Below, piece by piece: positions 46,609 to 47,016 of a stretch of DNA of 54,614 nt; position 1 is the stretch's first letter; each line of letters begins with the position of its first letter. Source of the DNA: an uncultured Clostridia bacterium (GTDB lineage: Bacteria; Bacillota; Clostridia; TANB77; CAG-508); NCBI GenBank assembly GCA_944390625.1, contig CALXRH010000088.1:1-54614 (forward strand). Reading direction: 5' to 3'. The notes under the pieces are model-generated. The model was not told the origin of the DNA. It made no database searches and worked only from the letters and a program-made list of their open reading frames with translations. The translations under genes were made by a program, and so were the position numbers.

Positions 46609-46624
46609 AAATTTGTTTGTTCGC

Positions 46625-46653
46625 TTGATTTTCTTATAAAAATACAGTATAGT
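46625..46653 (+). promoter_or_regulatory. promoter of the small hydrophobic ORF
   Basis: TTGATT, a 17-nt spacer, then TATAGT. The downstream leader contains two hairpins: GGAAATGAAA/TTTCATTCC and CTCGAT/ATCGAG. Confidence 0.55.
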
Positions 46654-46737
46654 ATTTATTGGAAATGAAAAAAGAGCAGATGTGAGTGTTACCTTTCATT
46701 CCTCGATTTAAGTATCGAGAGACTGGAGGTGATGTTT

Positions 46738-46836
46738 ATGAATTTTGTATTATTTTTAATCTATGGATTAATTAGTTCAATTGTAATAAACGTAGCCTTG
46801 TTGTGTGTTATATACATAATACTAAATAAGGATTAA
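46738..46836 (+). CDS. 32-aa hydrophobic peptide (type I toxin-like)
   Basis: MNFVLFLIYGLISSIVINVALLCVIYIILNKD: one TM helix with a polar, charged C-terminus. Strong SD GGAGGTGA 7 nt upstream. It is absent from the ORF track because it is short. Confidence 0.55.
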   Translation: MNFVLFLIYGLISSIVINVALLCVIYIILNKD

Positions 46837-46924
46837 AAAACACCACATTTTGCTTTGGCGAGCGATGTGGTGTTTATCAGATAAAATTTTATAAGGTAAC
46901 ACACATTTCTGTGCTTTCATTTCC
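46834..46924 (-). ncRNA. convergent antisense sRNA (candidate type I antitoxin), about 90 nt
   Basis: On the minus strand a perfect TTGACA-17-TATAAT promoter (46959..46931) is followed by a hairpin AACACCACAT/ATGTGGTGTT and then T6. No ORF. The transcript is fully complementary to the 3' end of the peptide mRNA. Confidence 0.6.
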
Positions 46925-46930
46925 ACTTTT

Positions 46931-46959
46931 ATTATAAATGAATTTTTATAATTTGTCAA
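46931..46959 (-). promoter_or_regulatory. consensus sigma-A promoter of the antisense sRNA
   Basis: The reverse complement reads TTGACAAATTATAAAAATTCATTTATAAT, i.e. TTGACA, a 17-nt spacer, then TATAAT. Confidence 0.7.
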
Positions 46960-47016
46960 ATTAGAATTAAAATTTTTATGAAACGAATATAAAGAGATAG
47001 AAAGAAGGAGGAAAAA

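Follow-up and report, generated by a model that had tools for sequence, protein, structure and literature searches.

Does the gap between sufD and sufS in a suf gene cluster of an uncultured Clostridia bacterium encode a genetic system of its own and, if so, of what kind? The question was raised by a reading of a 54,614-nt stretch of contig CALXRH010000088.1 (assembly GCA_944390625.1) that used the letters alone (hereafter the sequence-only reading) and that interpreted the gap as a type I toxin-antitoxin-like module with an Fst-, TxpA- or BsrG-type toxin. The whole of this stretch, 54.6 kb, is referred to as the window. The window is low in G+C content, and its nearest public relatives are metagenome-assembled genomes (MAGs) labelled 'uncultured Clostridia bacterium'. 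The gap is present inside the suf cluster as described, covering positions 46609-47016 (408 nt) between sufD (45541-46608) and sufS (47017-48252). The genes of the cluster are arranged in the order DtxR-type repressor gene (42918-43382), sufC, sufB (in two frames), sufD, gap, sufS, an open reading frame (ORF) for 140 amino acids, sufU (NifU_N) and mnmA. Judged from its sequence signals, the content of the gap, here called the cassette, is probably a new orphan type I toxin-antitoxin-like module. The claimed anatomy of such a module was recovered at the sequence level and the comparison of relatives confirmed an accessory cassette, while membership in the Fst, TxpA or BsrG families did not hold.

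The cassette contains a small ORF behind a Shine-Dalgarno sequence (SD), a promoter on the same strand, and a convergent promoter on the opposite strand that drives a predicted RNA towards a shared hairpin (Table 1). The strong SD and the 32-codon hydrophobic ORF of the sequence-only reading were both confirmed. The predicted peptide has a grand average of hydropathy of 1.89, its best 19-residue window reaches 2.77, and a single transmembrane (TM) segment is predicted, so that the ORF has the generic form of a type I toxin gene, encoding a small (below about 60 amino acids) hydrophobic peptide with one TM segment. Of the claimed single TM helix with a charged tail, the hydrophobic helix stands, while the charge of the tail is weak, as the C-terminal N-K-D contains one K and one D and has a net charge of 0. 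Both predicted promoters were found as well. The promoter of the peptide mRNA is moderate and matches the consensus at 9 of 12 positions, and the convergent minus-strand promoter matches it at all 12. Only two such 12/12 sites occur in the window with both strands counted, against 0.03 expected. From these matches, the antisense promoter is presumably stronger than the peptide promoter, as expected where the RNA has to be made in excess.

Table 1. Coordinates of the features predicted in and around the cassette (positions in the window)
Feature	Position	Strand	Remark
Promoter of peptide mRNA	46625..46653	+	TTGATT-17-TATAGT; predicted start ~46660/46661
5' leader	46661..46737	+	Anti-SD strand 46676-46698 pairs with 46724-46748 (SD and AUG)
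Nested leader hairpin	46700-46707/46714-46722	+	Predicted fold
Candidate membrane toxin ORF, 32 codons, MNFVLFLIYGLISSIVINVALLCVIYIILNKD	46738..46836	+	GGAGG SD 46725-46729, 8 nt before ATG 46738; TAA 46834-46836
Shared hairpin, preceded by A6	46835..46875	both	Arms 46838-46848 and 46865-46875, 11/11 complementary, 16-nt loop
Predicted non-coding antisense RNA, ~90 nt, candidate antitoxin	46835..46924	-	Complementary to the peptide mRNA at its 3' end
Promoter of antisense RNA	46959-46931 (46931..46959)	-	TTGACA-17-TATAAT
Left arm of inverted duplication, promoter spacer to +36, includes TGGAAATGAAA and GTGTTACCTT	46634..46695	+	Local alignment
Right arm of inverted duplication, antisense RNA promoter spacer and first ~32 nt of the RNA	46893..46951	-	Local alignment
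Deleted segment, 167 nt (leader and entire ORF)	46668..46834	+	Absent in L012, L073 and L074

The predicted mRNA appears to hide its own start site. The favoured fold of the leader (minimum free energy, MFE, -23.5 kcal/mol) buries both the SD and the AUG, and the probability of being unpaired, P(unpaired), ranges from 0.00 to 0.09 across the GGAGG, with a mean of 0.01. Among the 11 GGAGG-ATG starts in the window, the peptide start is the most sequestered (0.01 vs 0.15-0.96 for the other ten), and the sufS start has a P(unpaired) of 0.96. The mRNA fold is also more stable than that of shuffled sequences (z = -5.35). The sequence-only reading had proposed a different pairing, in which the 5' GGAAAUGAAA pairs with UUUCAUUCC (46694-46702) and the antisense RNA competes for this site. 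Such a stem is possible, but it needs a bulge and reaches only -13.5 kcal/mol, 10 kcal/mol worse than the SD-sequestering fold, and it was rejected.

The shared hairpin was confirmed with a T6 tract in the minus direction only. The A6 at 46835-40 becomes a U6 in minus-strand RNA alone, and the plus-strand tail is UUUAUCAG (a weak UUUAUC). The hairpin is thus a predicted intrinsic terminator for the minus-strand RNA and a weak one for the plus strand. A simple terminator scan missed it because its loop is 16 nt long, and the same scan found no plus-strand terminator between sufD, the cassette and sufS. The predicted antisense small RNA (sRNA) that ends at this hairpin is identical in 10/10 assemblies, and its fold is more stable than that of shuffles (z = -3.55). 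At the level of sequence, it shows the generic features of a type I antitoxin: an antisense RNA with its own promoter, its own terminator and complementarity to the mRNA. According to the sequence-only reading, this RNA is fully complementary to the stop codon and the 3' end of the peptide mRNA. The 3' end can be upheld, since modelling of 46832-46924 against an mRNA ending at 46885 gives a perfect duplex of 54 bp (-91 kcal/mol). The stop codon, which lies 1 nt from the hairpin, cannot, as the U-tract spans its last two bases only. An ATG at the fifth base of the predicted sRNA opens a 32-codon frame, MKAQKCVLPYKILSDKHHIARQSKMWCFLILI (46920-46822, minus strand), that has no SD. The stop of this frame is located past the U-tract and would be missing from a terminated transcript, so the frame is probably non-coding.

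Comparison with relatives indicates that the cassette is accessory. It is confined to the window's own narrow lineage among the relatives compared, and always occupies the sufD-sufS site. The full 408 nt are present without any difference in L050 (=L070), L051, L069, L071 and L072, and the first 300 nt in L047. A strain with a 90% identical SufD (L048 and L049), in which sufS through sufU show 83% nucleotide identity, has a 103-nt gap that contains a repetitive extragenic palindromic (REP)-like palindrome only. The gap of more distant relatives (SufD 56-62% identical) ranges from an overlap of the genes to 120 nt. The contigs of the relatives with a 75% identical SufD (L053-L057) and of a 74% MAG (L001) break 19-60 nt after sufD. 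In L058 (SufD 67% identical), a 120-aa ORF with hydrophobic segments (1232-1594) lies between sufD and sufS. It has no similarity to the 32-aa peptide and was rejected as a relative of it, which indicates that the sufD-sufS junction hosts different inserts in different lineages.

The cassette occurs together with a natural allele that has lost its peptide half. In the three assemblies concerned (Table 1), the deletion is bounded by AAAAAA at 46668-73 and 46835-40, so that its register is ambiguous by 6 nt, and the peptide promoter, the hairpin, the sRNA gene and the sRNA promoter are all kept. The retained 241 nt carry 0 changes in L073 and L074 and three in L012, immediately before the sRNA -35. 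The deletion strains show 14-17 differences over the 1236 positions of sufS and 22-24 over the final 400 nt of sufD. Since an addiction module can lose its toxin first unharmed, loss of the peptide alone is a tolerated order of decay. The divergence of the surrounding DNA is mosaic. Compared with L050 and L051, sufB-sufD mostly show 5-15 differences per 100 nt (range 0-27 per 100-nt window); the tract from 46588 to ~48450, which includes the cassette, sufS and the start of the 140-aa ORF, shows 0-2 differences per 100 nt, and the divergence rises again beyond it. The comparison with L050, L051 and L012 covered ~44100-49100, and the left edge of the identical tract is at 46588 in three strains. 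This near-identical stretch is a recombination tract with which the cassette and the linked sufS allele have spread recently, and as a result the copies hold no substitutions with which coding or structure could be tested.

These features are consistent with the following mechanism. Within an uncultured gut Clostridia species, one lineage would have exchanged its short sufD-sufS spacer for an accessory cassette. From the moderate promoter of this cassette, an mRNA of at least about 220 nt would be made that encodes a membrane peptide of 32 residues with a single helix, and the leader, by pairing 46676-46698 with the SD and the start codon, would leave this mRNA translationally inert. The convergent consensus promoter would produce the ~90-nt antisense RNA, which would end at the shared hairpin and be complementary to the mRNA 3' end over at least 46-54 nt. 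We infer that the duplex triggers degradation by a double-strand-specific RNase and/or holds the mRNA closed. The peptide, if toxic as supposed here, would be made only when the unstable RNA falls.

The predicted module resembles several known systems in part. Gram-positive type I toxins have 28-60 residues, one TM domain and charged C-terminal residues, with no homology between families, and the txpA/RatA and bsrG/SR4 families are among those listed (PMC6563280). Like these two systems, the cassette would combine the mRNA of a single-TM peptide with a convergent antisense RNA that pairs with the mRNA 3' end. It differs from them in that neither the peptide nor the RNAs show sequence similarity, the peptide has only 32 aa, fewer than theirs, and a polar tail of two residues, the module lies in a suf operon and not in a prophage, and the promoter and leader are duplicated in inverted orientation. 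In txpA/RatA and bsrG/SR4, the antitoxin promoter is the stronger one and degradation depends on the duplex, and SR4 also tightens the SD region. Membership in TxpA/BsrG, BsrH/BsrE, YonT or YhzE was rejected, as there is no protein family match and no Rfam match at the gathering score.

The par locus of pAD1 (Fst, RNA I and RNA II) has convergent promoters, a shared terminator hairpin with complementary loops, a 5' stem-loop that sequesters the SD, and a peptide of ~33 residues (PMC7472228). The layout of the cassette is the same in its promoters, which converge, in its shared terminator, which has a U-tract on one strand only, and in the 5' stem-loop predicted to cover the SD; the terminator is predicted to be effective in one direction only. 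The DNA repeats of par (DRa and DRb) are direct and, being read oppositely, give complementarity between the RNA 5' ends, whereas the repeats here are inverted and the RNAs same-sense. Fst peptides carry a [P/D/S/T]xxxG(C) motif in the TM domain, the P and G of which are essential for toxicity (PMC7472228). No [P/D/S/T]xxxG motif occurs in the peptide studied here, which has no proline and whose only glycine, G10, has F at -4. In view of this absence, the inverted repeats and the lack of a Pfam, NCBIfam or Rfam match, the claim of an Fst-, TxpA- or BsrG-type peptide was abandoned.

SprA1AS acts in trans on the ribosome-binding site of its toxin through a non-overlapping 5' antitoxin domain (PMC6393315). 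The cassette shares with SprA1/SprA1AS and SprA2/SprA2AS of Staphylococcus aureus the overlap of the 3' ends, and its predicted sRNA carries the SD-hiding GUGUUACCUU of the leader. This segment can pair with GGAGGUGAU of the initiation region through about 10 pairs, half of them G-U. However, the best predicted trans duplex (-13.4 kcal/mol) is like that of shuffles (-12.2 +/- 2.9 kcal/mol), 31% of which do as well, and an anti-SD action of the sRNA 5' domain similar to that of SprA1AS is not supported. The interaction analysis that the sequence-only reading had suggested for the RNA pair supports the 3' overlap but not contact between the 5' domain and the initiation region. A further difference is that PepA1 and PepA2 belong to the Fst family and have PxxxGC, which is absent from the peptide. 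In hok/Sok and aapA1/IsoA1, the full-length mRNA is held inactive by a long-distance fold-back between its 5' and 3' ends. A 5'-3' panhandle of ~30 bp is likewise predicted for the cassette if the mRNA reads through, with the difference that the SD is predicted to become looser through this fold-back and to close again once the antisense RNA binds.

The panhandle is related to an inverted duplication. The same-sense 30-nt repeat noticed earlier at the 5' ends of both RNAs proved to be real and longer, extending from the promoter spacer to about +36. The local alignment between the arms scores 44 vs 18.8 +/- 2.8 in dinucleotide shuffles, 0/1000 of which reach 44. The arms coincide with the two promoters and the two predicted transcript 5' ends, and they are not terminal in the unit. 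On a read-through plus-strand transcript, the right arm is complementary to the leader, and the leader is predicted to pair with 46894-46924 (panhandle 46661-46694 x 46894-46924, ~30 bp, MFE -89.5). The P(unpaired) of the SD changes from 0.00-0.02 to 0.05-0.58 in this read-through model, and it is predicted to return to 0.00-0.02 when 46832-46924 is blocked, as it would be by bound sRNA. It is conceivable, although we consider it doubtful, that the inverted duplication makes the antitoxin a mimic of the toxin leader and gives a three-state RNA switch. In such a switch, short transcripts would hide their own SD in cis. Read-through transcripts, including any that arrive from upstream of the cassette, would pair the leader with 46894-46924 and loosen the SD, and the sRNA would then bind the 46894-46924 segment, evict the leader and allow the SD to re-close. 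If so, translation of the toxin would report the balance of suf operon read-through versus the sRNA level, a three-state logic that is not described for par, txpA, bsrG or sprA1. The inverted promoter-leader duplication also points to a simple way in which the 5' end of the toxin itself could give rise to a gene for an antitoxin RNA.

Searches for homologues of the peptide gave no match of significance. Pfam, NCBIfam and PHROGs, searched at E <= 10, gave no significant match, and PDB sequences gave none; the only family matches, far short of the thresholds, were a 33-residue symporter accessory protein (E 0.36, 11 bits, cut-off 35) and a PHROGs family of unknown function (E 0.25). No homologue was found by phmmer among 1.84 billion protein representatives, a word-indexed search with a tandem-duplicated query returned 6 candidates, none of them with E <= 10, and exact-sequence look-ups of the 32- and 34-aa forms of the peptide returned no match. 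Neither tblastn of the peptide nor blastn of the 408 nt matched plasmids and phages. The exact motif TGGAAATGAAA-N6-24-GTGTTACCTT had no viral match and 13 metagenome matches, all in unrelated coding sequence, and the 7 matches of the hairpin-arm motif in viral contigs are all unrelated. The cassette RNAs had no Rfam match at the gathering score, the best being a spurious snoRNA. The search for further copies of the peptide and leader, also suggested by the sequence-only reading, found one copy in the window, which covers 54.6 kb of the genome, and none in the collections searched. No second cassette was found in the window or the fetched loci, to which this count is limited. The DNA motif scans required exact motifs, and the GTDB genome scan was made with SufD, not the cassette, as query. 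Gene callers left the 32-aa ORF uncalled on the contigs that carry the cassette. Protein databases are therefore nearly blind to such peptides, and the negative results for homologues are weak.

Several observations weigh against the toxin-antitoxin module. The peptide has no detectable homologue in any collection searched, and only one copy of the cassette occurs in the window, whereas several copies are common for type I modules. The tail of the peptide is weak, with K and D only and no net charge. Its hydrophobicity is not distinctive: the ORF that contains it ranks 3rd of 162, and equally hydrophobic small ORFs arise by chance in AT-rich DNA. All copies of the cassette are identical, and since this identity extends over sufS, it may only reflect recent spread. 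The three deletion assemblies represent a single event, and their undecayed sRNA would also fit an RNA or promoters with a job of their own, for example for sufS. The confidence placed in the module is limited by the K-D tail, by such chance hydrophobic ORFs, and by the fact that toxicity and transcription are both predictions.

The undecayed sRNA bears on an alternative that we give a modest chance of being right, namely that the cassette regulates the distal suf genes, with its plus-strand promoter acting inside the operon to transcribe sufS-orf140-sufU-mnmA. Read-through from sufCBD would then be damped or processed by the strong antisense RNA or its promoter, either through transcriptional interference or through RNase cleavage of the duplex. 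The small ORF would be there by accident, or it would be an upstream ORF, with the ribosome that terminates on it opening the hairpin. As no plus-strand terminator was found from sufD to sufS, plus-strand transcripts probably continue into sufS. The weak plus-strand tail of the hairpin, the short distance from the ORF stop to it, and the position of the window's other 12/12 promoter upstream of the first suf cluster gene also fit such a unit. So does the deletion allele, which keeps both promoters and the sRNA with 0 changes in 241 nt, while sufS and the 3' end of sufD have diverged (14-17/1236 and 22-24/400). However, close and distant relatives manage without the cassette, and a helix of 20-plus bp that hides a consensus SD and AUG would be pointless for a non-coding spacer. 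A peptide with one Cys and no regulatory codon run is unlike an attenuation leader, and a plus-strand hairpin without a U-tract is not set up for classic attenuation. A leader-peptide transcription attenuator was accordingly rejected, UUUAUCAG on the sense strand not being a U-tract.

It seems unlikely that the ORF encodes a small membrane protein of non-toxic function, for example a stress peptide or an accessory subunit, whose expression a cis-antisense RNA adjusts, a mode of control found for many bacterial small proteins. The anatomy of ORF, promoter, sRNA and leader would fit such a protein equally, and so would a tail of only K and D. The only family matches, to the symporter accessory protein and the PHROGs family of unknown function, are non-significant, and although the relative with a 67% identical SufD has another membrane ORF at the same junction, the two proteins are dissimilar. 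The lack of a homologue, the restriction to one lineage and the clean loss in some strains represent accessory or selfish behaviour, and double repression, by a buried SD and by an antisense RNA from a consensus promoter, is typical of harmful products. It is very improbable that the cassette is a functionless, decaying remnant of a mobile or repetitive element, similar to a miniature inverted-repeat transposable element (MITE), with chance promoters and a chance ORF. In favour of such a remnant are the inverted repeats on either side of the unit, the variability of the site, which in relatives contains a REP-like palindrome, and the abundance of promoter-like sites in AT-rich DNA (6 found vs 8.9 expected at relaxed stringency). 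A 12/12 promoter, by contrast, is expected only 0.03 times per window, and the repeats coincide exactly with the two promoters and the predicted RNA 5' ends instead of being terminal. The retained parts are conserved at least as well as the flanking genes, and no second copy was found in the window or the collections searched. A MITE/REP-type element was rejected on the position of the repeats and the single copy in 54.6 kb.

Should the peptide of the favoured toxin-antitoxin module be toxic, uncultured gut Clostridia would contribute a further, orphan family of type I toxins. Modules of type I are familiar, and predictions of new orphan toxins appear regularly; the unusual points of this cassette are its position in suf, the inverted duplication and the three coexisting alleles. 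Its placement in an iron-sulfur (Fe-S) assembly operon, head-on to a consensus operon promoter, makes it a possible selfish cassette wired into the expression of sufS and sufU. One population contains the full allele, the empty allele and an allele with the antisense RNA only, which amounts to a natural experiment on the role of the module in vivo.

Some other features of the locus were noted. The second 12/12 TTGACA-17-TATAAT promoter of the window lies at 42859-42887 (plus strand); the DtxR-type repressor gene, the first of the suf cluster, follows 30 nt downstream. The spacer of this promoter holds the palindrome GATAAGTTTATC, a possible operator, and a palindrome TTATCAGATAA lies inside the sRNA gene at 46874-46884. 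An operator shared by this promoter spacer and the sRNA gene was rejected as unconvincing, since 2-3 GATAA/TTATC palindromes were found against 0.6-0.8 expected and the enrichment is not significant. The REP-like palindrome CAAAAGGACCGTTTCTTTTTG and its variants, arranged in hairpin pairs, fill the sufD-sufS spacer of cassette-free relatives (3563-3665 in L048), and the window has one copy, downstream at 52812-52832. Of the contigs that end just after sufD, those of L001 and P0005 break inside this palindrome, and such breaks suggest that the REP-like element is multi-copy. The 140-aa ORF between sufS and sufU (48249-48671, plus strand) has no significant Pfam match, and the close relatives L012, L048, L050, L069 and L073 keep an ORF of similar size there. 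A T-box leader (159-378, plus strand, 118 bits) and a tRNA gene (34291-34363, minus strand) are the sole Rfam matches in the window at the gathering score.

The sufB gene (44146-45544) contains a +1 frame change at CTT-C-GGA (44461-44467). Compared with an intact SufB of 465 aa, residues 1-105 are encoded in one frame (77% identity) and residues 106-465 in the +1 frame (94% identity). The same extra C, in the context GAT AAA CTT/CTA C GGA AT, is present in 9 fetched assemblies (the window, L001, L002, L005, L006, L008, L048, L051 and L053), whose SufD identities span 57-100% with the window included and 57-90% in the eight others. Seven relatives (L003, L004, L007, L009, L010, L015 and L052) read sufB in one frame. 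None of the papers listed in literature searches connected frameshifting with the Fe-S protein SufB. The codon that follows CUU in the 0 frame is CGG, the rarest Arg codon in the window (5/14,342 codons), and the heptamer resembles the +1 sites of Ty1 (CUU-AGG-C) and prfB (CUU-UGA-C). The site is thus a candidate for programmed +1 ribosomal frameshifting of the Ty1 or prfB type.

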